Shown in pieces: positions 5,497-29,016 of a stretch of 32,000 bases of DNA. Location: NCBI RefSeq assembly GCF_000185985.2, contig NC_014909.2, positions 240,001 through 272,000 of the forward strand, written 5' to 3'. Each line of letters begins with the position of its first letter. The stretch's first letter is position 1. This DNA is from Candidatus Saccharimonadota bacterium (GTDB lineage: Bacteria; Pseudomonadota; Gammaproteobacteria; Enterobacterales; Enterobacteriaceae). The translations under genes and the position numbers were made by a program. The notes below the pieces were generated by a model. It worked only from the letters and a program-made list of their open reading frames with translations, had not been told where the DNA came from and made no database searches.

Positions 5497-5616
5497 AACT
5501 TGGTGGCATTAGCGCGATAGAACCACCTGATTCCATTTCGAACTCAGAAGTTAAATGTCGTGGTACCGATGGTAGTGTGAGGAATCCTCATGCGAGAGTA
5601 GGGGGCTGCCAAGTTG
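5497..5616 (+). rRNA. rrf: 5S ribosomal RNA, not adjacent to any 23S or 16S gene in this window
   Basis: 120 nt align position for position with E. coli 5S (…TAGCGCG.T.G..CCACCTGA..CCAT..CGAACTCAGAAGT.AAA…CCGATGGTAGTGTG.GG…C.CATGCGAGAGTAGGG..CTGCCA.G…). Helix I is kept by complementary ends (aacttggtggc / gctgccaagtt). This is the GC-richest patch of the spacer. Confidence 0.93.
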
Positions 5617-8890: not shown

Positions 8891-8949
8891 AATCTCCATA
8901 TTTTAATTTTATTATATATAGATAGGTTTAGATTTTGTTGTTAATTTAT

Positions 8950-9023
8950 GCCGATATAGCTATAATTGGAAGAGCAGTGCATTCGTAATGCAAAGGGTAT
9001 AGGTTCGAATCCTATTATCGGCA
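8950..9023 (+). tRNA. thrW: tRNA-Thr (anticodon CGU), no encoded 3' CCA
   Basis: The cloverleaf can be drawn: acceptor gccgata/tatcggc, anticodon loop ttCGTaa, T-arm atagg-ttcgaat-cctat. It is near-identical in the acceptor, anticodon and T arms to E. coli thrW as I recall it. The discriminator A is followed by taaaag. Confidence 0.92.
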
Positions 9024-9196
9024 TAAAAGATTATGCCTATAATAATGTGTTTGTAATAACAAAGGATATATTATAATGATATTGTATACATCATATACCT
9101 CAATTTATTATATATTTAAATTTTAATAAAAATAAAATATAAAAAAGAAATTTTATTAAAATAAAATTTGTGTGTTATATGTACGGTAATAAGGTG

Positions 9197-9811: not shown

Positions 9812-10076
9812 AATTTTTCCTCTTTATAATATTTATTAATACATTTTGTTTATTTTTTAGATATTAATTTTTTAACTAATTTTACTATCATGATTATAAT
9901 AAAAATATGTTTAATTGCATATATACACATGCAAAAATTTATTTTTACATATAAATGCCTTGCTATTTTTGTTGTTGATAAGAATTGATTTATTTATTTA
10001 AATACCCCAATATTATTATATTATATTTGTATATCATAATCATTCAGGTAAAAATGAATTTAAAATTAAAAGTATA

Positions 10077-10453
10077 ATGGAAATAATAATTTTAAATTTA
10101 TTTAACCTACAGAGTGTATATTCAACTATCCTAGTCTCAAAAGAAATGAATGTTAATAATTATAGGTAAATCAAGTAAATGATAATAATTTACATTATTT
10201 TTCAGATCTTTCCAACAAATTATCTAGAGAATTTGTTAATATTTGATGATATTTAATTAATTCCAGAAAGACTGTATGAATTCTACAATTTAGTAAAAAA
10301 GTTATAATACTGATATATAAAACATATGTAGAGAGAGAGTAATAATAAAGATTTTGCTTACATCTTCAAGCTTATTGGATTATTGTAACGAGGTTTAAAA
10401 TGGGTTTGGAAAAAGAATTAAATGGATTTAATGCATATCATGAGAATTTATAA
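10077..10453 (+). pseudogene. queA: eroded relic of queA (S-adenosylmethionine:tRNA ribosyltransferase-isomerase)
   Basis: Four colinear patches resemble conserved QueA blocks. NLQSVYS (10104-10124) resembles LYQTVYS. NLHYFSDLSNKLSREFV (10187-) resembles GLHFDEPLLEKLRAKGV. IILIY (10304-) resembles IFIYPG. RFCLHLQAYWIIVTRF...NAY (10349-) resembles TNFHLPESTLIMLVSAF...NAY. The last three patches share one frame but are interrupted by stop codons (TGA TGA, TGA, TAA TAA TAA) and by deletions. The position and strand, upstream of tgt, match the E. coli queA-tgt order. Confidence 0.45.
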
Positions 10454-11252
10454 TTGTACTTATAATACATTACTGAAATTTATTTTAATAATGTAATAAA
10501 TATTATTATTGTATATACATATTAAATATATGTTAGACACAATTCCTATTTTTTATACTTTAAAACATTCATTGTGAATCTATAGACTATGAATAATATC
10601 AACCTAGCCTATGGATTTCAAAATGAATCAAGCGTGTTTTAATAATAGGGTTGAATTATAATATTCCGTTGCATGATACATTCAAAAACTAGGAGTTAAT
10701 ATAATTTATATTATATTATATATAGGATTTACTAATATTTATCCAGTATGATAATACTGGATTTAGAATTATATTATATATGATGAATATACAATAGTTT
10801 CTTAGGATATAATAGAGGTTATATATGTTATAAAAGTCGAAATAGTCGATTAATAGTAGTAATGAGGCTTTTGTAGTAAAAAAAATTAGAAACTTTATTG
10901 ACATATTTAGTACAAAATTAATTATTGATTTATTTTTAGAGATTTTAAGATTTTTATTTTTTTATAATCATCAGTGTAAAATTATTAATGTTTTATTTGT
11001 TAATTTGCATTTGCCAAAAAAAATTAATTATTTGGTTTCGATTTTTCAAGATATTGAAATATATTATATGTATATTATTAAATTGTTAATTTAAGTTATA
11101 GATTGCTTAGTAATGTAAATTTTGTGTGTTGATTGCTTGTAATTTAACTGCGAAAGAATATGTATATTTATAAATTATCATCTAAATATTATTTGAAAAA
11201 TATACACATATGTTATATATAATATATTAATTAATTTGATTTAGGATTTTGA

Positions 11253-12374
<1,122 letters not shown>

Positions 12375-18038: not shown

Positions 18039-18134
18039 ATAAAATATTCTTTTTATTAAATTTAAGCATAATTTTTTCTATGATCTTCTTTTAGAAGATT
18101 AATATTTTTATGAAATGTATTATCTTTATTTATA

Positions 18135-18608
18135 ATGTGTAATATGAAAATTATGTACTTTTTTGCAACTGGTTTTGGTATAGGTAAAATATCAATTATG
18201 ATGCCTGTTGTGGGTACTATAGCATCGTTATTAGCAATTCCGATGTGGTGGGGGTTGGTATATTTTTTTTCTTACCAGACATATTTTATTTTTTTGATAT
18301 TAGGGATAATATTTGGAATTTATTTATGTGGTAAAGTTACTAAATTTATTGGGATTCATGATCATCAATCAATTGTTTGGGATGAGTTTGTTGGTATGTG
18401 GATTACATTAATTGTGGTACCGTTATATAGTTGGATGTGGATAGTTGTTGCTTTTTTGTTATTTAGAGTATTTGATGTAATAAAACCTTGGCCAATTTCT
18501 TGGTGTGATCGTGTAATAAAAGGTGGATTTGGGATTATTATTGATGATATATTAGCTGGGTTTATCTCTATTCACATTATTTTATTTTTTATGCAAATAT
18601 TTCCTTAA
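18135..18608 (+). CDS. pgpA: phosphatidylglycerophosphatase A
   Basis: 157-aa membrane ORF. GFG.G, HDH.SIVWDEF.GMWITL, KPWPI.W.DR and GGFGI.IDDI.AG match E. coli PgpA. The start is ambiguous among ATGs at 18135, 18144 and 18153. Confidence 0.9.
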   Translation: MCNMKIMYFFATGFGIGKISIMMPVVGTIASLLAIPMWWGLVYFFSYQTYFIFLILGIIFGIYLCGKVTKFIGIHDHQSIVWDEFVGMWITLIVVPLYSWMWIVVAFLLFRVFDVIKPWPISWCDRVIKGGFGIIIDDILAGFISIHIILFFMQIFP

Positions 18609-18696
18609 TACTTACTCTTATTACAGTAATTCTTCTGTATTAAACGCAATATGCTATTAATAATCATAATATTTCATATATTTAATTAAGGTTAAA

Positions 18697-20582
18697 TTAT
18701 TGCATTATAATCCAATCCATAATTTTTTTATAGATTCCTGAGCTGTCTAATCCTAATTCGGATAGTATTTCTGTTCGAGATCCTTGCTGAATAAAGAAAT
18801 CAGGTAAACCAATATTCAGAATAGGAATCAATAATTTATTATTGCGCATAAGTATTTCATTAACTCCGCTTCCAGCTCCTCCTGTTATTGCATTTTCTTC
18901 TAGAGTAATTAAAGCTTGATGATTTTTAGCAAGATTTTTTATCAACGTTTCGTCAAGAGGTTTAACAAATCTCATATCTACTAATGTAGCATTTAATTGT
19001 AATGCTACATTGTATGCAGCTTTTAACAAAGCTCCAAAATTAAGAATAGCAATGTGTTGTCCATGATGGCGTATAATTCCTTTATTTAATGGTATTGAGT
19101 ATAATTGTTTGATATTATTATCATTAGGTATATTGTTATTAGTGGTATATTCTTTAGGATACCGTACAATACTAGGCCCTTTTTGATATAGGTATCCTGT
19201 ATTTAACATTAATTTGCATTCATATGCATCACTTGGTGTCATGATAATAGTATTAGGAATGCAACGTAGATACGATAAATCAAAGGCTCCTTGATGAGTT
19301 TGCCCGTCTGCCCCTACGATTCCTCCTCTATCTATAGCAAATAATACTGGTAATTTTTGAATTGCTATATCATGAATAAATTGATCATAAGCTCTTTGTA
19401 AGAACGTTGAATAAATAGCAACTACAGGTTTATATCCTGCAATAGCTAGCCCAGCTGCAAAAGTTACAGCATGTTGTTCAGCAATAGCAACATCAAAGTA
19501 TTGTTTTGGATATTTTTTGGAAAATTTACTCATTCCGGAACCTTCTCTCATAGCTGGTGTAATCCCTATAATTTTATTATCTTGTGTTGCAATTTGACAT
19601 AACCATTCTCCAAATACTTCAGAATAGGTAATATTTTTTTTAATATTATGTTGATTAGTAGGTATAATTCCACTATTTAAATTGAATTTAGGCACAGCAT
19701 GCCATTTGATTGGATCTTTTTCTGCAGGTTTATATCCATACCCTTTTTTAGTAATGATGTGTAAAAATTGAGGTCCTTTTTTAGTATTACGTATGTTTCT
19801 TAAATTATGTATTAATTTGTATACATTGTGTCCATCTATAGGACCAATACAATTAAAACCAAGATTTTTAAATAATTCCATAGCAATAGTGAAATTATTT
19901 TCTTCATGATTGATAAAAATATTTCTGCATAATTTTTTAATATTGGATGTGATATTTAAATATTTTTTTTTTTAGTTTTACAGGAAGAAGTATGTAATGC
20001 TCCTACATTTTCTGAAATAGACATATCATTGTCATTTAGAATAATTAGCAAATTAGTCGATTTAACTGTTCCAGCATGATTTATTGCTTCAAAAGCCATA
20101 CCAGCAGTTAATGCTCCATCGCCTATTATACATACTGTATGTCGATTTAACATTTCTCGTTCTGCAGCAATAGCTAATCCTAACCCTGCACTAATTGAAG
20201 TAGAAGAATGCCCCACTGATAATACATCATATTTACTTTCATCTCTGCAAGGAAATGGATGCAGTCCATTACGTTGTCGGATACTGTAGATACGTTTCTT
20301 TCGACCTGTTAGTATTTTATGGGGATAGGATTGGTGTCCTACGTCCCAAATAAGATAATCAAAAGGAGTGTTATATACATAATGTAATGCTACTGTGAGC
20401 TCAACGACTCCTAGTCCAGATGCAAAATGTCCACTAGATTTACTTACACTATTTAATAGAAATTGTCTTAATTCATTACATAATTTGTTTAATTTATTTT
20501 CAGGTAATTGACGTAATTCTTCAGGAGTATTAATAAATTCTAGTATAGAGTATATGTTAGAATCATCATTTATCATATGCAT
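18697..20582 (-). pseudogene. dxs: 1-deoxy-D-xylulose-5-phosphate synthase. The reading frame is broken once, inside an A11 tract (fragments 19956..20582 and 18697..19881). It is otherwise intact and may be expressed via slippage.
   Basis: The N-terminal fragment carries [20 protein letters not shown] and the TPP motif [14 protein letters not shown]. The C-terminal fragment carries [19 protein letters not shown] and [20 protein letters not shown]. Together they are colinear with E. coli Dxs (620 aa). Confidence 0.92.
19963..19973 (-). other. poly(A)11 tract on the dxs coding strand (T11 on + strand); site of the frameshift
   Basis: Counted directly: ...tgt aaa act AAAAAAAAAAA t att taa. The downstream frame opens within the tract. 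Confidence 0.95.
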
Positions 20583-21255
20583 ATGTTTTGTAGTTGAAGT
20601 GTGGTATAAATTATTTAGTTTTTTGCTATTGTAAAATATATTCTATAAATTTGAATAGAACATTGCTATTATATTTAAATTTATTGGTACATTCTAATTT
20701 GTAATAAAGTTTGTTTTATATATGATTTACATCATAAATTAATTTGATTTTAATTATAGTAATAATTGTGTACATTACATAATGTTTTTTTACTTTTAAA
20801 ATTCAATTTATAGCTTGTGTAAGAATACTAATAATAATTTCGTATAGATTATGTTGAATATAATTTATAAAAGAATAGATTTTATTTTAATTAATAATAA
20901 CATTAGAGATAAGTTATTAACAGAATATTATTTCAAATAATTAAAATAAGGCAATGTTTAAATTTTATTTATGTGTTACATATATTTTCGTGCTTGGATG
21001 ATATATAGACATATTTAATTTGTTTTTAAATTACATTATTATAATTAATTGATTTTTAAAATAAAAAGAGATGTATCTTAATTTATCATGATAATTTTAT
21101 TATTTTTTTATTTTAATTTATTTTTTTTAGAAGAAATTTTTAGGGTATTAACAATCTGCATGATACATTAACGCTTTGTGATTAATAATATTTTTATTCA
21201 CAAAATTAAGAAATGTATTTAAATAAATTTTAGGTAAGCGTTATTAAAAAGATTT

Positions 21256-22755
21256 ATGAAAATTATTATTAAATTTTCGCCTGAAATCATTATAAAAAGT
21301 CGTTCTGTACGAGTTTTTTTTATAAATGTTCTTGTAAAAAATATAAAAAAAGTTTTAAAACAATATAATACATTGGCTTTATTGAGAGTGCATTGGGATA
21401 ATATTGAAATACAATCTGAATGTGGAAGTTATTTAGAAATTTCTAAAATATTAGTCAATGTTCCTGGAATTCATTCCGTGTTATGGGTTCACGATAGTAT
21501 TATTAACTCTTTAGAAGATATTTATAATCAGGTTATACGTACAAAATATTATACTCAATTGTTAGGAAAAACTTTTTGTGTTCGGGTAAAGCGTCGAGGT
21601 AATCATATTGTTACTTCTCAAGACGTTGAACGTTATATAGGAAGTAGATTACATGAAAGTATCAACGATACTTCTGTTAATTTAGTTAACCCTGAGGTAA
21701 CTATATATTTAAATATTCGGGATAGTTTTTTATTTATAGTTCTTGAACGTTTTAAGGGATTAGGAGGATTTCCTGTTGGAACTCAACAAGAGTCTTTATC
21801 TTTAATTTCTGGAGGATTTGATTCTACTGTTGCTAGTTATATGTTAATTCGTCGAGGGTGTAAAGTACATTATTGTTTTTTTAATTTAATTGGTAATATT
21901 ACGCACACTATTGAAGTTTATAAAATAATATCTTATTTATGGAATAAATTCAGTGGGTCACATAAGGTGAAATTAATTTCTGTTGATTTTTCAATAGTAG
22001 TAAAAGAATTATTTATGAAAATAAAAAACAATTATATAGGAATTATACTAAAACGTATGATGATTAGAGCTGCGTCTACTTTAGCGTCTCATTACAAAAT
22101 TAAATCATTGGTTACAGGAGAATCATTAGGTCAGGTTTCTAGCCAAACGTTAGACAACTTAATTTTAATTAATAATGTTGTATCTTCTTCTGATTGCATA
22201 GTATTCAGACCTTTAATCGTTCATGATAAAGAATCAATTATTAAATTAGCTCGTCAAATTGGCACAGAAGAACTGTCTAGAACTATTCCAGAATATTGTG
22301 GTTTAATTTCAAAAAGGTCTTGTGCGAAAGCAAAAAAAAAGGCTATTGAATTAGAAGAAGGTAATTTTAATTTTTCAATATTAGATAAAGCTATATCTCA
22401 AGCTCATATAATAAATGTAAATAATATTCTTCAATATATAGAAGATATTCGTGCTATCAAAATAGAAACTCAAACAGAGTTAAACTCCCAAGATATAATA
22501 GTAGATATTCGATCAGAATATGAACAACAGAGGAATCCTATTAATATTCCACTTGATATTAAAATAAAAAAGATACCTTTTTATAAATTAAAGGATCAAT
22601 TTCCAAAGCTTGATCAAAATAAGATATATCTATTGTATTGTGATCAAGGCATAATGAGTCGTCTACAAGCAATTCATTTATTGCAACAAGGTTTTCATAA
22701 TGTAAAAGTATATCGTAGTAATTTGTTGCTTGTTAATACAAAAATTAATAGGTGA
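21256..22755 (+). CDS. thiI: tRNA 4-thiouridine(8) synthase / thiazole sulfur carrier ThiI, with C-terminal rhodanese domain
   Basis: 499-aa ORF. MKIIIKFSPEIIIKSRSVR aligns with E. coli MKFIIKLFPEITIKSQSVR. It has the PP-loop SGGFDS. The rhodanese active-site Cys is kept (LLYCDQGIMSRLQA). Confidence 0.94.
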   Translation: MKIIIKFSPEIIIKSRSVRVFFINVLVKNIKKVLKQYNTLALLRVHWDNIEIQSECGSYLEISKILVNVPGIHSVLWVHDSIINSLEDIYNQVIRTKYYTQLLGKTFCVRVKRRGNHIVTSQDVERYIGSRLHESINDTSVNLVNPEVTIYLNIRDSFLFIVLERFKGLGGFPVGTQQESLSLISGGFDSTVASYMLIRRGCKVHYCFFNLIGNITHTIEVYKIISYLWNKFSGSHKVKLISVDFSIVVKELFMKIKNNYIGIILKRMMIRAASTLASHYKIKSLVTGESLGQVSSQTLDNLILINNVVSSSDCIVFRPLIVHDKESIIKLARQIGTEELSRTIPEYCGLISKRSCAKAKKKAIELEEGNFNFSILDKAISQAHIINVNNILQYIEDIRAIKIETQTELNSQDIIVDIRSEYEQQRNPINIPLDIKIKKIPFYKLKDQFPKLDQNKIYLLYCDQGIMSRLQAIHLLQQGFHNVKVYRSNLLLVNTKINR

Positions 22756-24278: not shown

Positions 24279-25163
24279 TTACCATATGCTACGACAAATT
24301 TTTACATCTAATGATAACATAAGATTTAGAAGTATTATGATAATAATTGATAGAATAAACATTTTCTTTGCCCATACAGAATCATTATTAATATATTTAT
24401 ATTTATACCATCCTGTGTATAACCAAAATAAATTAAAAATGCTAATTATACATAAAAATATATAACTAGTGTAACCTTTCACAGTTAATAATATTGTAGA
24501 TAAACAAAATCCTAGAATACCTGTAAGAATATGTATTCTAGTTATATGCATCCCTTTTTTTATAAAAAAGGTTGGAATTAAAGCATTTTTATAGTCGATA
24601 TGTCTGAAAATAGTTATCGAATAAGAATGTGGAATTTGCCAGAAACTAAAAATCATTAACAATATTAAAGCTCCGCAATCAAATGTATTGGTTACGGTAC
24701 AATATCCAATTACTGGAGGCATTGCTCCAGATAGACTGCCTGCGATCATACCATAACTTGATTTGCGTTTCATGTATAAACTATATAAAACTACATAAAT
24801 AATAAATCCTATTGCCGATAAAAAAATAGTATAGAAATTTTTTATATTATAAAGTAATAAAAATCCTGAAATGTTTAGTATTAATGCATAAAATATACTA
24901 TTTTTTATTGAAAGTATTTTTTTTTGTTGAGCTAATATTCGAGTATTTGTTCTCATCATAATCGCATCAATGTCTCGATCAATAATATTATTTAGAACAC
25001 AACTAGAAGCGATTACCAAAGCTAATCCAATAATCATATTGATTAATATCATGTAGTTGATATGTTGTTCTTGGGATGCCATTAAAAATCCTCCTATAGA
25101 GGACATTATATTTCCTATCACAATACCTGGTTTTATTAAAGAAAAATAATATTGAATAATCAT
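24279..25163 (-). CDS. cyoE: protoheme IX farnesyltransferase (heme O synthase)
   Basis: 294-aa ORF. KPGI..GN, NN.IDRDID, YSLYMKR.S.YG...GSLSGA.PPVIGYC and WQ.PHSY match E. coli CyoE. Confidence 0.95.
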   Translation of the reverse strand: MIIQYYFSLIKPGIVIGNIMSSIGGFLMASQEQHINYMILINMIIGLALVIASSCVLNNIIDRDIDAIMMRTNTRILAQQKKILSIKNSIFYALILNISGFLLLYNIKNFYTIFLSAIGFIIYVVLYSLYMKRKSSYGMIAGSLSGAMPPVIGYCTVTNTFDCGALILLMIFSFWQIPHSYSITIFRHIDYKNALIPTFFIKKGMHITRIHILTGILGFCLSTILLTVKGYTSYIFLCIISIFNLFWLYTGWYKYKYINNDSVWAKKMFILSIIIIILLNLMLSLDVKICRSIW

Positions 25164-25506: not shown

Positions 25507-26103
25507 TTATAAAATTCCTATCAGATATACTATAGTGAATACACATATCCATACAATATCTAGAAAATGCCAGAACAAACTTAGACATTGTAATCGAATT
25601 AGATTAGTTTGTGTCAGTCCATTTAAGGTTAGTTGTATAATCATAATAATAATCCAAATTAAACCTACTATCACATGAATTCCATGTGTACCTATTAATA
25701 TAAAAAATGATGAAAAGAATGCATTGTAACATGGGGTATATCCATGATGAATTAGATGGAAAAATTCATAGATTTCTAGTATAATAAAACATAACCCTAA
25801 TAATTCGGTTATGCAAATCCATTGCATAAATTTTTGCGCCCAAGTTTTATTTATATAAAACATACTTTTACAGCAAGCAAGACTACTTAATAACAAAAGT
25901 ACTGTTTCTGAAAAAATAAAATTTAAATTGAAAATACTGTTATTATGATCGTCAAACACCGTTATATTTAAATGCTTACTTAATACTATATGCATAGCAA
26001 ACAAACTAGCAAATAGAATACAATCACTCATTATATACAACCAAAAACCAAATATTACTCTTTTATTTATATCAAACTGAAGAGTTGTGTTTATTGTGTG
26101 CAT
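25507..26103 (-). CDS. cyoC: cytochrome bo3 ubiquinol oxidase subunit III
   Basis: IFGFW.Y.MSDCILF, EIYEF.HLI, GTHG.HV..GLIW and [21 protein letters not shown] match E. coli CyoC. The ATG at 26103 is preferred to the TTG at 26109. Either start overlaps the cyoB 3' end (stop at 26072-26074). Confidence 0.93.
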
Positions 26104-28057
26104 GTTCAATTTCTTTAATTATATTTGAAGGGACATAATACTCAGTATTATTATTAAATGTATGCGCTATCCATATTCCTATTATTCCAAATAAACTTAA
26201 TATCGATAACCACCATATGTACCAAATCATGCTAAATCCAAATAGCAGACTAAAAAAAGCGATTAAGATTCCATCATGTGTATTTTTAGGCATATGTATA
26301 GGTTCGTATGTTTTATTTTTACAAAGTGTAACATTTTTTCGATTTTCTATATACCAGAATACATTGCGATTATTATTAATAATTGGAATATGTGCAAAGT
26401 TATAAAAAGGAGGGGGAGAAGAGGTAGCCCATTCTAATGTAGATCCGTTCCAAGGGTCTGAGTTGTCATGATAATTATTATATTTGTCTCGATTAAATAC
26501 GCTAATTATTATTTGAATACATTGACATAGGATTCCTAATCCAATTAGGAATGTCCCTATTGCTGCTGTTATTAACATGGGGGAAAATATAGTATCAATA
26601 TTTTGACTTAAACGTCTAGTCATACCCATAAATCCTAAAATATATAAAGGCATAAATGCTATATAAAAACCAATTATCCAGAGCCAAAAGGCACATTTGC
26701 CCCAATTTTCGTGTAAAGTATACCCAAAAGCTTTTGGGAACCAATACGACATCCCAGCAAAGCAACCAAATAATACTCCTCCAATAATAACATTATGAAA
26801 ATGAGCAACTAAAAATAGACTGTTATGCAGTAAAAAGTCAATTCCAGGTATTGCTAGCAACACTCCTGTCATACCTCCTATTGAAAAAGTAATAATAAAT
26901 CCTATTGCCCACAACATCGGGGTTTTAAAAATTATTTTTCCTTGATACATGGTGAATAACCAATTAAATACCTTTACTCCCGTAGGGATTGCAATAATCA
27001 TAGTCATAATTCCAAAAAAAGCATTTACATTGGATCCGGCTCCCATGGTAAAAAAATGATGTAACCATACACAAAAAGATAAAGCAGTAATAGCAATGGT
27101 AGCCCATATTAAAGTTGTGTATCCAAATATTTTTTTTTGAGAGAAAGTAGAAACAATTTCCGAAAATATTCCAAATGCAGGTAGTGCTAAAATATAAACT
27201 TCAGGATGTCCCCATGCCCAAAATAAATTGATATACATCATCATATTACCACCGAGATCATTAGTAAAAAAATGAGTTCCTAAATAACGATCAAAAGTTA
27301 GTAATGCAATTGTTACAGTAAGAATAGGAAACGCTACAATAATTAATGCATTTGTACATAATGCTGTCCAAGTAAATACTGGAATTTTCATCATGGACAT
27401 ACCTGGGGCTCTCATATATAAAATAGTAGTAAAAAAATTTATGCCAGTTAAAGTAGTACCAATTCCAGAGATTTGAATGCTCCATATCCAATAATCTACT
27501 CCAACATCAGGACTATATTCTTTACTTGATAATGGTGGATAAGCTGCCCATCCAGTTTGGGCAAATTCCCCTATTCCTAAAGATAAATTAATTAATATAA
27601 CTCCAACCATAAATAACCAAAAACTTAAAGAATTAAGAAATGGAAAAGCTACATCCCTAGCTCCAATTTGTAGCGGAACTATTATATTCATTAAGCCTAT
27701 TACAAATGGAGTTGCCATAAATATAATCATGATTACCCCGTGAGCTGTAACTACTTGATCATAATGATGTACAGAAAGAAACTCAGATAGTCCAAGAGAT
27801 GAGAGTGCTTGTTGAGTGCGCATCATAATTGCATCAGCAAAACCCCGTAAGAACATGATACATGATACCATGACATACATTATACCAATTTTTTTATGAT
27901 CCACAGAGGTAAGCCATTCATTCCATAAATACGTCCATTTTTTATAGTAAGTAACAGTACCTATCACCAAAGTGCTAAAAATAAAAACTACAGCTATTGT
28001 TGACATAATAATTGGATCATGATATGGAATGGAATGTATCGTTAACTTTCCGAGCAT
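26072..28057 (-). CDS. cyoB: cytochrome bo3 ubiquinol oxidase subunit I
   Basis: 661-aa ORF, near-colinear with E. coli CyoB (663 aa). Shared blocks include [38 protein letters not shown] and [16 protein letters not shown]. Confidence 0.98.
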
Positions 28058-28143: not shown

Positions 28144-29016
28144 TTAATGTTTAAATTTATTGATAACACTATCAAATAAATTAGGTTGTATATTAGAAAA
28201 ATAAGTAATGGAATCAAACATACTAGGTTTTGCTAATTTTTCATAAGCATTCATGTTATTAAGATGATGTATGGATCTTTGAGCTTTCTGTACCCATTGG
28301 GTAAATTCTTTTTTGTTGTTTGTAGCAATTACTATAAATTTCATTCCTGAGAATCCTTGTCCGCTAAAATTTGAAGAAATTCCTTTATATTTGCCAGGTT
28401 TATTAGCAATTAAATTTAGTTGTGTTTGCATACCAGCCATAGCATAAATTTGACTACCTAGTTGAGGAATAAAAAAAGAGTTCATTACTGAATTAGAAGT
28501 AATATTAAAACGTATTGGAACATTTGCTGGGAAAACAAGTTCATTAATAATTGCTATGTTATGTTGAGGATAAATGAAAAGCCATTTCCAATTTAATGCA
28601 ATAACATTTACAATAATAGGATCAACTATTTTTGAATCCAAATAAATAGGATTTTTTGGATCTAATTTGTGTGTTGAATGCCATGTTAATATACTTAATA
28701 TAATAATTATTATTATTGGAATAATCCATGTGGCGTATTCTATTTTTTTAGACTCAATCCAATTGGGATTGTATTTAGTATGGGTATTATTTGTTGCACG
28801 GTATTTTATGGTAAACAATAGAGTCATTATGATTACAGGAATTACTATGATAAGCATCATACCAAAAGCAATGATTATTAAAGAACGTTCTTCTAGCCCT
28901 ATGGAACCTTTAGGGTGCATTAGCACTAAATGATCACATCCATTTAATAGGATTATTGAACTATATATAAAAAAAAAGGTACATTTTTTTATATATTTAT
29001 TTGTAAGAATGTTCAT
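28144..29016 (-). CDS. cyoA: cytochrome bo3 ubiquinol oxidase subunit II (lipoprotein; short C-terminus)
   Basis: 290-aa ORF with lipobox LLNGC. KYRA.N, SNSVMNSFFIP.LGSQIYAMAGMQT.L.LIAN.PG.Y.G and GFSGMKF match E. coli CyoA (315 aa). The His-rich C-terminal tail is missing. Confidence 0.95.
   Translation of the reverse strand: MNILTNKYIKKCTFFFIYSSIILLNGCDHLVLMHPKGSIGLEERSLIIIAFGMMLIIVIPVIIMTLLFTIKYRATNNTHTKYNPNWIESKKIEYATWIIPIIIIIILSILTWHSTHKLDPKNPIYLDSKIVDPIIVNVIALNWKWLFIYPQHNIAIINELVFPANVPIRFNITSNSVMNSFFIPQLGSQIYAMAGMQTQLNLIANKPGKYKGISSNFSGQGFSGMKFIVIATNNKKEFTQWVQKAQRSIHHLNNMNAYEKLAKPSMFDSITYFSNIQPNLFDSVINKFKH

Follow-up and report, generated by a model that had tools for sequence, protein, structure and literature searches.

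A frameshift within an A11 tract divides dxs of Candidatus Blochmannia vafer in a variable loop: a candidate for rescue by slippage

We analyzed a stretch of 32,000 nucleotides (the window) from the genome of Candidatus Blochmannia vafer BVAF, a symbiont of carpenter ants. The window contains dxs, the gene of the enzyme Dxs, which makes DXP, the compound from which both isoprenoids and vitamin B6 derive. This gene is not one uninterrupted frame in B. vafer. A genomic run of 11 A (A11; T11 on the plus strand, 19963–19973) separates 208 codons in the zero frame from 424 codons in the -1 frame, all on the minus strand. The 5′ part (19956–20582, minus strand; 208 codons and TAA) codes for the N-terminal portion of domain I, with H49, H80, and the GDG...NDN thiamine-diphosphate (ThDP) motif. 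The 3′ part (18697–19971, minus strand; 424 sense codons and TAA) opens at the tract's third A, codes for the rest of domain I and for domains II and III, and carries E370, R398, R420, D427, and H431. The tract itself covers dxs codons 204–207, which as written specify Lys-Lys-Lys-Asn. The first open reading frame (ORF; 20582 to 19956) ends in TGT AAA ACT AAA AAA AAA AAT ATT TAA, with the closing TAA (19956–19958, minus strand) two codons past the tract, and the unrescued product would have 208 residues. A preliminary description of the locus had placed a single frameshift in this A11, and its coordinates agree with ours.

The last stop codon of the -1 frame is a TAA (19972–19974, minus strand) formed by a T and the first two A's of the tract. 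This codon had been described as the only one blocking that frame; it is indeed the last, but a second TAA lies two codons upstream, which leaves the conclusion on the frames unchanged. By direct reading of the sequence, both frames are open over 13 nt (19959–19971, minus strand), comprising nine A's and TATT, and any inserted base or -1 shift within these 13 nt gives full-length Dxs. If the tract is read as A12, a single ORF of 628 codons results, and if it is read as A9, one of 627 codons; A10 or A11 does not restore the frame. The fusion by A12 or A9, the colinearity of the product with Escherichia coli Dxs, and the linker quoted for it had all been given correctly. The first ATG of the downstream frame (19879–19881, minus strand) is codon Met236 after correction and falls where a variable loop has its C-terminal end; it has no Shine-Dalgarno match, and is the only candidate start for a separately translated C-terminal fragment.

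A11 is the longest homopolymer in the window, followed by five runs of nine, and the earlier statement that it is the longest coding run holds. By our own arithmetic, about 0.7 A/T runs of 11 nt are expected per 32 kb on both strands at the window GC content of 26.6%, and such a run by itself is unremarkable. The non-random part is its exact coincidence with the sole frame break of an otherwise intact and strongly conserved dxs.

Dxs corrected to A12 scores 851.5 bits against TIGR00204 (cut-off 465.95), covering positions 3–615 of the 616 in the profile, and 864 bits against the E. coli structure 2o1s, with query residues 10–626 aligned in a colinear manner to chain residues 7–620. After the correction the only stop codon is the terminal one, and dxs has no second lesion. 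The corrected protein keeps GDG...NDN and the counterparts of E. coli H49, H80, E370, R398, R420, D427, and H431, as anticipated in the preliminary description, which had found neither half otherwise damaged. Lys replaces E. coli R478, a difference shared with 22 of the 28 sequences aligned and with Mycobacterium tuberculosis. The marks of a decaying pseudogene (several disabling lesions, loss of the ORF, raised dN/dS) were not found in dxs, which has one lesion and an omega of 0.13. Elsewhere in the window, the spacer with the queA relic (9812–11267), in contrast, has no ORF longer than 62 aa, and its three-frame translations gave no Pfam signal.

The A11 tract falls in a domain I loop that is variable and disordered and that is dispensable in other DXPS enzymes. 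Mean column identity in this loop is 0.46, compared with 0.80–0.86 elsewhere in the Dxs alignment, and the AF2 model has pLDDT below 50 at residues 185–231. Replacement of the equivalent loop by a glycine linker in Klebsiella pneumoniae (residues 197–240) and M. tuberculosis (190–234) left the enzymes active (PMC10504544, PMC9068908). Given this position, gain or loss of lysines here should leave every product functional.

The frameshift is specific to B. vafer. The orthologous site is A8 in B. floridanus and A7 in the symbiont of Camponotus modoc, in frame in both, and Dxs is full length in all other sampled Blochmannia (about 25). All 28 aligned relatives have single-frame proteins of 617–633 residues, none of them split, and a conserved programmed frameshift was rejected as an explanation, since all relatives are in frame. 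A homology search of a collection of 5.8 billion proteins returned no relative closer than B. floridanus, and a search for sister-strain fragments with the C-terminal half alone had the same species as its best match (81%). Peptide patterns of the corrected Dxs revealed no close relative among GTDB species genomes, where the best match was Providencia siddallii (62%). Exact-sequence look-ups of the two dxs ORFs gave no record, which is compatible with annotation as a frameshifted gene or as a pseudogene without translation. The frameshifts of dnaX and ytfM are, unlike that of dxs, conserved across species (PMC3017870). This confinement to one species counts against reading dxs as a gene maintained over the long term in its frameshifted form.

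Constraint on the protein is not relaxed. The omega of 0.13 between B. vafer and B. floridanus is the lowest among six neighboring genes, and lineage-unique amino-acid changes number 32 in B. vafer vs. 36 in B. floridanus (6 vs. 13 in the N-terminal half, 26 vs. 23 in the C-terminal half), and neither half of Dxs has an excess along the vafer lineage. Branch omega values for the post-frameshift half, derived from pairwise distances, are about 0.14 for the vafer branch and about 0.15 for the floridanus branch, and the published fold-increase in protein evolution is 1–1.5 (PMC3017870). The acceleration test on Dxs has low power against a recent event. By a decay estimate, a lesion-free downstream half has a probability of at least 0.05 up to 0.012–0.043 neutral substitutions per site, so that a loss of constraint on this half, if there was one, could have lasted for at most about 3–9% of the vafer branch. 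The sole lower bound on the age of the lesion is the dS of 0.0017 between two genotypes of one colony, both of which, as published variant calling implies, have the dxs frameshift. The earlier derivation of continued selection on dxs from the lack of other lesions fails, because a pseudogene younger than about 0.012–0.043 substitutions per site would look identical.

Frameshifts in poly(A/T) tracts of eight B. vafer genes, dxs among them, were reported with the genome, and transcriptional slippage was proposed (Williams and Wernegreen, 2010; PMC3017870). The dxs frameshift and its slippage reading are therefore already known since 2010, our analyses agree with those of the genome authors, and the present observation is a correct rediscovery. 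We consider a genuine one-base deletion from A12 to A11, in a gene that is leaky and not dead and is rescued by slippage of RNA polymerase, to be the best explanation, with a probability of roughly 55%. The tract would have expanded from the A7–A8 (Lys-Lys) of relatives within the non-conserved, disordered surface loop of domain I, which accepts length changes, and would then have lost one base of its lysine-coding poly(A). Slippage of RNA polymerase on the T11 template would produce some transcripts with A12 (or A9 or A15), and their normal translation would yield full-length Dxs of 628 residues with a stretch of Lys3–5 in the loop; some of the enzyme may also come from A11 mRNA by ribosome sliding or -1 slippage. 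The lowered supply of Dxs could still feed two pathways retained in B. vafer, the DXP-dependent route to vitamin B6 and the MEP route to isoprenoids. Slippage probably takes place at the dxs tract of B. vafer and may provide enough enzyme for selection to continue.

Enterobacterial RNA polymerase slips on A/T runs of at least nine, including A11 in lacZ and A10 in Buchnera mur genes (PMC6260861). The precedent named in the preliminary description, Tamas 2008, exists, and as quoted in PMC5009743 it found 12–50% corrected transcripts in genes of Buchnera and Blochmannia. Deletions were reported to be the favored outcome for E. coli RNA polymerase on A11 in vitro (PMC6260861). Loss of one base leaves A10, which is still out of frame, and such a bias counts against rescue by slippage. 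The slippage rescue suggested earlier is the same as the 2010 proposal of the genome authors, but slippage is not the sole route, ribosome sliding being realistic at A11.

One of the known systems closest to dxs is the class of Tamas 2008 (Buchnera mur genes, a histidine gene of Blochmannia pennsylvanicus; Wernegreen et al., 2010; as cited in PMC5009743, PMC3017870, and PMC6260861), in which Williams and Wernegreen (2010) place dxs of B. vafer itself. Its members have a coding-strand poly(A) of at least 10, a tract indel as the only lesion, no accelerated evolution, and an AT-rich gammaproteobacterial insect symbiont as the host genome. The frameshift of dxs likewise falls within a coding-strand A/T run of about nine or more, as the sole lesion and with no acceleration of protein evolution, given the low power of that comparison against a recent event. 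The best cases of the class are conserved across populations or species, whereas the dxs frameshift occurs in one species. Slippage in free-living bacteria (dnaX A9 of Thermus thermophilus, mxiE T9 and spa13 A10 of Shigella, transposases of IS elements) follows the mechanism proposed for dxs, in which the RNA-DNA hybrid realigns on an A/T run of at least nine and transcripts of mixed length result. These sites are, however, conserved and programmed for two products or for regulation, while the dxs tract arose by accident in one lineage, within a variable loop.

If Dxs is made only via homopolymer expression errors, an obligate mutualist runs an essential step on leaky decoding, and the dxs lesion marks where B6 provisioning could drop out of the symbiosis. 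The phenomenon was shown experimentally in 2008 and recognized for dxs in 2010, and dxs is a further example of it, not a discovery. Added by the re-analysis are the location in a dispensable loop, an upper bound on the time the gene could have been dead, and the position of A11 at the threshold of ribosome sliding, by which the rescue of dxs need not be transcriptional.

The base call at the tract is reliable. Homopolymers are the classic place for length miscalls, and the available text of the genome paper mentions no Sanger check of the dxs tract, so a sequencing or consensus artefact (a genome with A12 in truth, or a mixed population, and dxs intact) has to be weighed. However, the genome was finished by majority calling from Illumina reads of 100 nt, which cross the entire tract, at a depth of 542x (930x on re-analysis). 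No coding homopolymer had an indel above the 18% threshold of the variant calling, and the two genotypes differ in coding sequence by just two indels, both of 3 nt and neither of them frameshifting. The genome authors also examined the dxs site and drew it in their Figure 4 (PMC3017870). An assembly error is unlikely given this read depth and the lack of a frameshifting coding indel; the alternative, raised in the preliminary description, is largely closed by the published data, and we regard an artefact of any such kind as very improbable. A different possibility is that the deletion of one base from A12 inactivated dxs recently, with the slippage product too scarce and DXP-dependent metabolism starting to go. 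The restriction of the frameshift to B. vafer agrees with this, as does the intact downstream half over the range of neutral substitutions given above, and the genome paper itself concedes the possibility that "these frameshifts are recent" (PMC3017870). Parallel losses of the terpenoid-pathway genes ispADFGH have occurred in several Blochmannia lineages, and ispA is gone beside dxs in the window, so that loss of dxs would not be out of character. Against recent inactivation, dxs is full length in all other sampled Blochmannia, including lineages without isp or without pdx genes. In B. vafer, ispD, ispF, ispG, and ispH are intact and served as references for the floridanus pseudogenes (PeerJ 2015, Table S1), and the B6 pathway is conserved in Camponotus Blochmannia (PeerJ 2015); both pathways would be useless without DXP. 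Moreover, the downstream half has no excess of amino-acid changes, and some in-frame mRNA is expected regardless, as enterobacterial RNA polymerase slips on A/T runs of this length. Taken with these points, a dead dxs is unlikely, and the leaky gene rescued by slippage is preferred.

Rescue might also be mainly translational, with ribosomes that pause on AAA-AAA-AAA of accurately copied A11 mRNA and slide, or make a -1 slip, at A AAA AAA, giving the same protein as an A12 transcript. The zero frame contains this slippery heptamer and the downstream ORF is in the -1 frame, as in the -1 frameshifting of E. coli dnaX (A AAA AAG), and a shift is accepted anywhere in the last nine A's, within the overlap of 13 nt. 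In a reconstituted E. coli system, A11 gave robust ribosome sliding and A9 or A10 little (PMC4363877; cf. Koutmou et al., 2015), which makes sliding a realistic second route that may operate in dxs. The dnaX site, however, has Shine-Dalgarno and hairpin stimulators, and the dxs tract has neither, nor is it conserved in relatives: the fold of 19880–19985 has an MFE of -7.4 kcal/mol (z = -0.86), with no structure within 10 nt of the tract and the tract-proximal 55 nt unpaired, no notable inverted repeats were found near the tract, and nothing like GGAGG occurs in the sequence CATACTTCTTCCTGTAAAACT upstream. Sliding would also scatter ribosomes over several frames, limiting the yield in the correct one, and it normally cuts output, which differs from the restoration of frame proposed for dxs. 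The direct endosymbiont precedent is length heterogeneity of mRNA. A predominantly translational rescue is, on this evidence, rather improbable. Finally, an active enzyme of two pieces could form non-covalently from the N-terminal product of 208 residues and a C-terminal fragment with its start at Met236 (ATG 19881), a residue specific to B. vafer; we hold this scenario to be highly doubtful. It is conceivable in that the frameshift takes away only a loop whose cutting or deletion spares both fold and activity. The zero-frame stop after residue 208 and Met236, just before the conserved LF..LGFN core, mark the two edges of the loop. Loop-deleted DXPS of Deinococcus radiodurans, M. tuberculosis, Pseudomonas aeruginosa, and K. 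pneumoniae retain activity without the same non-conserved loop in which dxs is broken; trypsin cleaves E. coli DXPS within its loop, at K227, whichever of the two conformations it adopts; split-chain transketolases exist (6yaj, 6yak); and Met occurs at position 236 only in B. vafer among 29 aligned sequences. On the other hand, the loop-deleted enzymes are single chains covalently joined by a glycine linker, unlike the split dxs, natural split transketolases divide between domains and not inside domain I, and there is no split relative. No Shine-Dalgarno match precedes ATG 19881 (duplex with the anti-Shine-Dalgarno +0.2 kcal/mol), a check that is uninformative here, since a match is likewise absent from roughly one in two true starts of the window, that of dxs among them. 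Promoter-like sites are not enriched in 18500–21300 (23 vs. 24.8 ± 4.8 in shuffles), and the only terminator-like site of this region is within coding sequence. One start codon per 29-codon AT-rich stretch is expected by chance in our own estimate. Such an enzyme, if real, would be a natural split ThDP enzyme, independent of slippage.

The dxs gene of the carpenter-ant symbiont Candidatus Blochmannia vafer is split by a frameshift within an A11 tract of the minus (coding) strand, which is T11 at 19963–19973 on the + strand. The 5' ORF (20582→19956, minus strand) has 208 residues and ends in ...TGT AAA ACT AAA AAA AAA AAT ATT TAA. The downstream part, offset by -1, is open on the same strand from 19971, the third A of the tract, to 18697 (424 codons plus stop), and the last stop upstream in that frame is the TAA made by T19974 and the first two A's of the tract. 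Both frames are open over a single stretch of 13 nt, so any rescue of dxs must occur in the tract. Edited in silico, A12 gives one ORF of 628 codons and A9 one of 627, and neither A10 nor A11 gives a single ORF. The tract is the longest homopolymer of the window, followed by five runs of 9; an 11-mer alone is not improbable at 26.6% GC, and the signal is its coincidence with the sole break in a conserved gene.

The protein translated after correction to A12 is Dxs (851.5 bits against TIGR00204, cut-off 466), colinear with E. coli Dxs 2o1s across residues 7–620 (864 bits) and closest to that of B. floridanus (81% identity). The corrected protein retains every catalytic and ThDP-binding residue, with R478 replaced by Lys as in most Blochmannia. 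The feature is real, and the preliminary description had it right: a gene split at an 11-nt poly(A), with matching coordinates and codons, fused by A12 or A9, in the longest homopolymer, with a product colinear with E. coli Dxs and conserved catalytic motifs. The Lys at the substrate-binding Arg478 position (~19150–19152) is found in B. vafer and 22 of the 28 aligned sequences; M. tuberculosis DXPS has the same change (Lys473), considered functionally interchangeable (PMC9068908).

The observation and its interpretation are a correct rediscovery, since both had been published for dxs of this very genome. Williams and Wernegreen (2010; BMC Genomics 11:687, PMC3017870) described indels in poly(A)/poly(T) tracts of eight B. 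vafer genes and proposed transcriptional slippage as the correction; of these genes, dnaG, dxs, pth, and ribF are frameshifted in B. vafer only and evolve at 1–1.5 times the rates of the floridanus lineage. In subsequent work on Blochmannia, genes of this kind are counted as intact. That A11 is a sequencing or consensus artefact is highly improbable. The genome was built from Illumina reads, its consensus called anew with all the data (542x), and a 930x re-analysis with 100-nt reads separated two colony genotypes, 382 SNPs and 37 indels apart. All 23 homopolymer indels between them fall between genes, and coding sequence has just two indels, of 3 nt each; hence A11 is present in both genotypes.

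Comparison of tract length in sister species, proposed in the preliminary description, was run on two relatives and gave A8 in B. floridanus (CAA CAA AAA AAA TAT, Lys-Lys) and A7 in the C. modoc symbiont (TCA AAA AAA GTA). Given such lengths in relatives, the tract grew in B. vafer, most simply to A12 (Lys4), before losing one A. It occupies codons 204–207, in a loop that separates the NDN motif from the LF..LGFN core, varies in length, and has a mean column identity of 0.46, vs. 0.80–0.86 elsewhere (29 sequences). Residues 185–231 have pLDDT below 50 when the corrected protein is modelled with AlphaFold2; the model as a whole is of moderate quality (mean pLDDT 66.6, pTM 0.68). Crystals of the D. 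radiodurans enzyme do not resolve the DXPS loop, trypsin cleaves it at K227 in the E. coli enzyme, and replacement of the equivalent loop by six or seven glycines left activity in K. pneumoniae (197–240), P. aeruginosa, and M. tuberculosis (190–234; PMC10504544, PMC9068908). As the loop is dispensable, Lys3, Lys4, and Lys5 products should all function, and a slippery tract could grow there without cost.

Selection was assessed on dxs and five neighbouring genes aligned from B. vafer, B. floridanus (L005), and the C. modoc symbiont (L006). Omega of dxs between B. vafer and B. floridanus is 0.13, the lowest of the six (0.13–0.34). With C. modoc as outgroup, lineage-unique amino-acid changes number 32 in B. 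vafer and 36 in B. floridanus (6 vs. 13 before the tract, 26 vs. 23 after it), and least-squares branch omegas of the post-frameshift half, from pairwise distances, are ~0.14 and ~0.15, respectively. In the downstream frame 208 of 3816 possible single-base changes create a stop; with an indel-to-substitution ratio from published polymorphism data, this half would remain free of lesions, with a probability no lower than 0.05, through no more than 0.012–0.043 neutral substitutions per site, and amino-acid counts give a similar bound (~0.02). The bound is 3–9% of the vafer branch (dS ~0.49) and well above the 0.0017 dS between the colony genotypes, so dxs is "maintained, or recently broken" and selection data cannot choose. 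The earlier argument that selection persists because no other lesion is present therefore does not hold, as a break within that bound would look alike. An old pseudogene beside the single-lesion dxs is exemplified by the 1.46-kb spacer upstream of tgt (9812–11267), described in the literature as a degraded queA relic, in which no ORF exceeds 62 aa and Pfam finds no match in three forward frames.

The lesion-free half is compatible with a recent true pseudogene. The loss of ispA from the dxs–thiI spacer in B. vafer and B. floridanus and the repeated loss of terpenoid genes within Blochmannia also favour this reading, which is nevertheless unlikely: by published accounts, ispD/F/G/H are intact and the DXP-dependent B6 pathway is kept in B. 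vafer, so both DXP consumers are present. B. floridanus is reported to keep dxs with ispD/F/G/H pseudogenised and B. obliquus to keep it after loss of pdxABHJ, and every other sampled Blochmannia Dxs (~25, including uncultured assemblies) is full length. The best explanation, to which we give a probability of roughly 55%, is that dxs truly lost one A (A12 to A11) in a loop that tolerates change, and that slippage on the tract allows leaky expression. RNA polymerase would add one A, giving an A12 transcript and Lys4 Dxs. The enterobacterial enzyme slips on A/T runs of at least 9, including lacZ A11 and Buchnera mur A10 (PMC6260861), and PMC5009743 gives 12–50% corrected transcripts for Buchnera and Blochmannia genes, in line with the precedent cited earlier.

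Ribosome sliding is a realistic second route: A AAA AAA stands in the zero frame, the ORF to be reached lies at -1, and ribosomes of a reconstituted E. coli system slide robustly on A11 and little on A9/A10 (PMC4363877). Rescue chiefly by the ribosome is quite improbable. A -1 shift on A11 mRNA would yield the same protein as the A12 transcript, so only RNA-level data separate the two. Programmed frameshifting was rejected: the tract has no stimulators (the downstream fold has z = -0.86 and nothing like a Shine-Dalgarno element lies upstream), and relatives do not share the arrangement. More speculative is a two-piece enzyme, its C-terminal part starting at the vafer-specific Met236 (ATG 19881) at the loop end; it is very unlikely, and no Shine-Dalgarno match precedes this ATG, though this is uninformative in this genome.

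Four more 9-nt A/T runs lie in intact genes, thiI (22332–22340), cyoE (24917–24925), cyoB (27130–27138), and cyoA (28969–28977), three being in-frame A9 on the coding strand. At this length, the published threshold for RNA polymerase slippage, they probably yield some out-of-frame transcripts and are candidates for future frameshifts.

The adjacent ThiI has the exact sequence of ADV33638.1 from B. vafer str. BVAF (722,585-bp genome). By family assignments the window reads rpsD-rpoA-rplQ, fmt, def, tsaC, aroE, 5S rRNA, gloB, rnhA, dnaQ, gmhA, tRNA-Thr, ahpC, spacer, tgt-yajC-secD-secF-ribD-ribH-nusB-pgpA, dxs, spacer, thiI, yajR, cyoEDCBA, clpP, in agreement with the published Blochmannia order (PeerJ 2015 Table S3). 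The dxs–thiI spacer (20583–21255, 673 bp) is ORF-free and takes the place of ispA and xseB in E. coli; its only IspA trace is an insignificant C-terminus match at 20629–20682 (E = 2.3). In the comparison with L005 (2224–3000) and L006 (2050–2976), the C. modoc symbiont has an intact ispA, but B. floridanus and B. vafer lack the gene; cyoE (24279–25163), a farnesyl-diphosphate consumer, and cyoABCD are intact despite its loss. The mechanical cyoC ORF (25507–26109) starts with TTG at 26109 and shares 38 nt with the 3' end of cyoB (26072–28057), an ORF-calling artefact; its family match begins only at residue 19, so the genuine start probably lies further downstream. A lone 5S rRNA gene (5499–5614, 80 bits) stands apart from any 16S/23S gene in the window, and tRNA-Thr(CGT) at 8949–9024 is the sole tRNA in the 32 kb. 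At 18039–18134 pgpA directly follows nusB; thiL of the E. coli nusB-thiL-pgpA order is absent from all three loci examined, and thiamine-phosphate kinase therefore appears to have been lost across Blochmannia.
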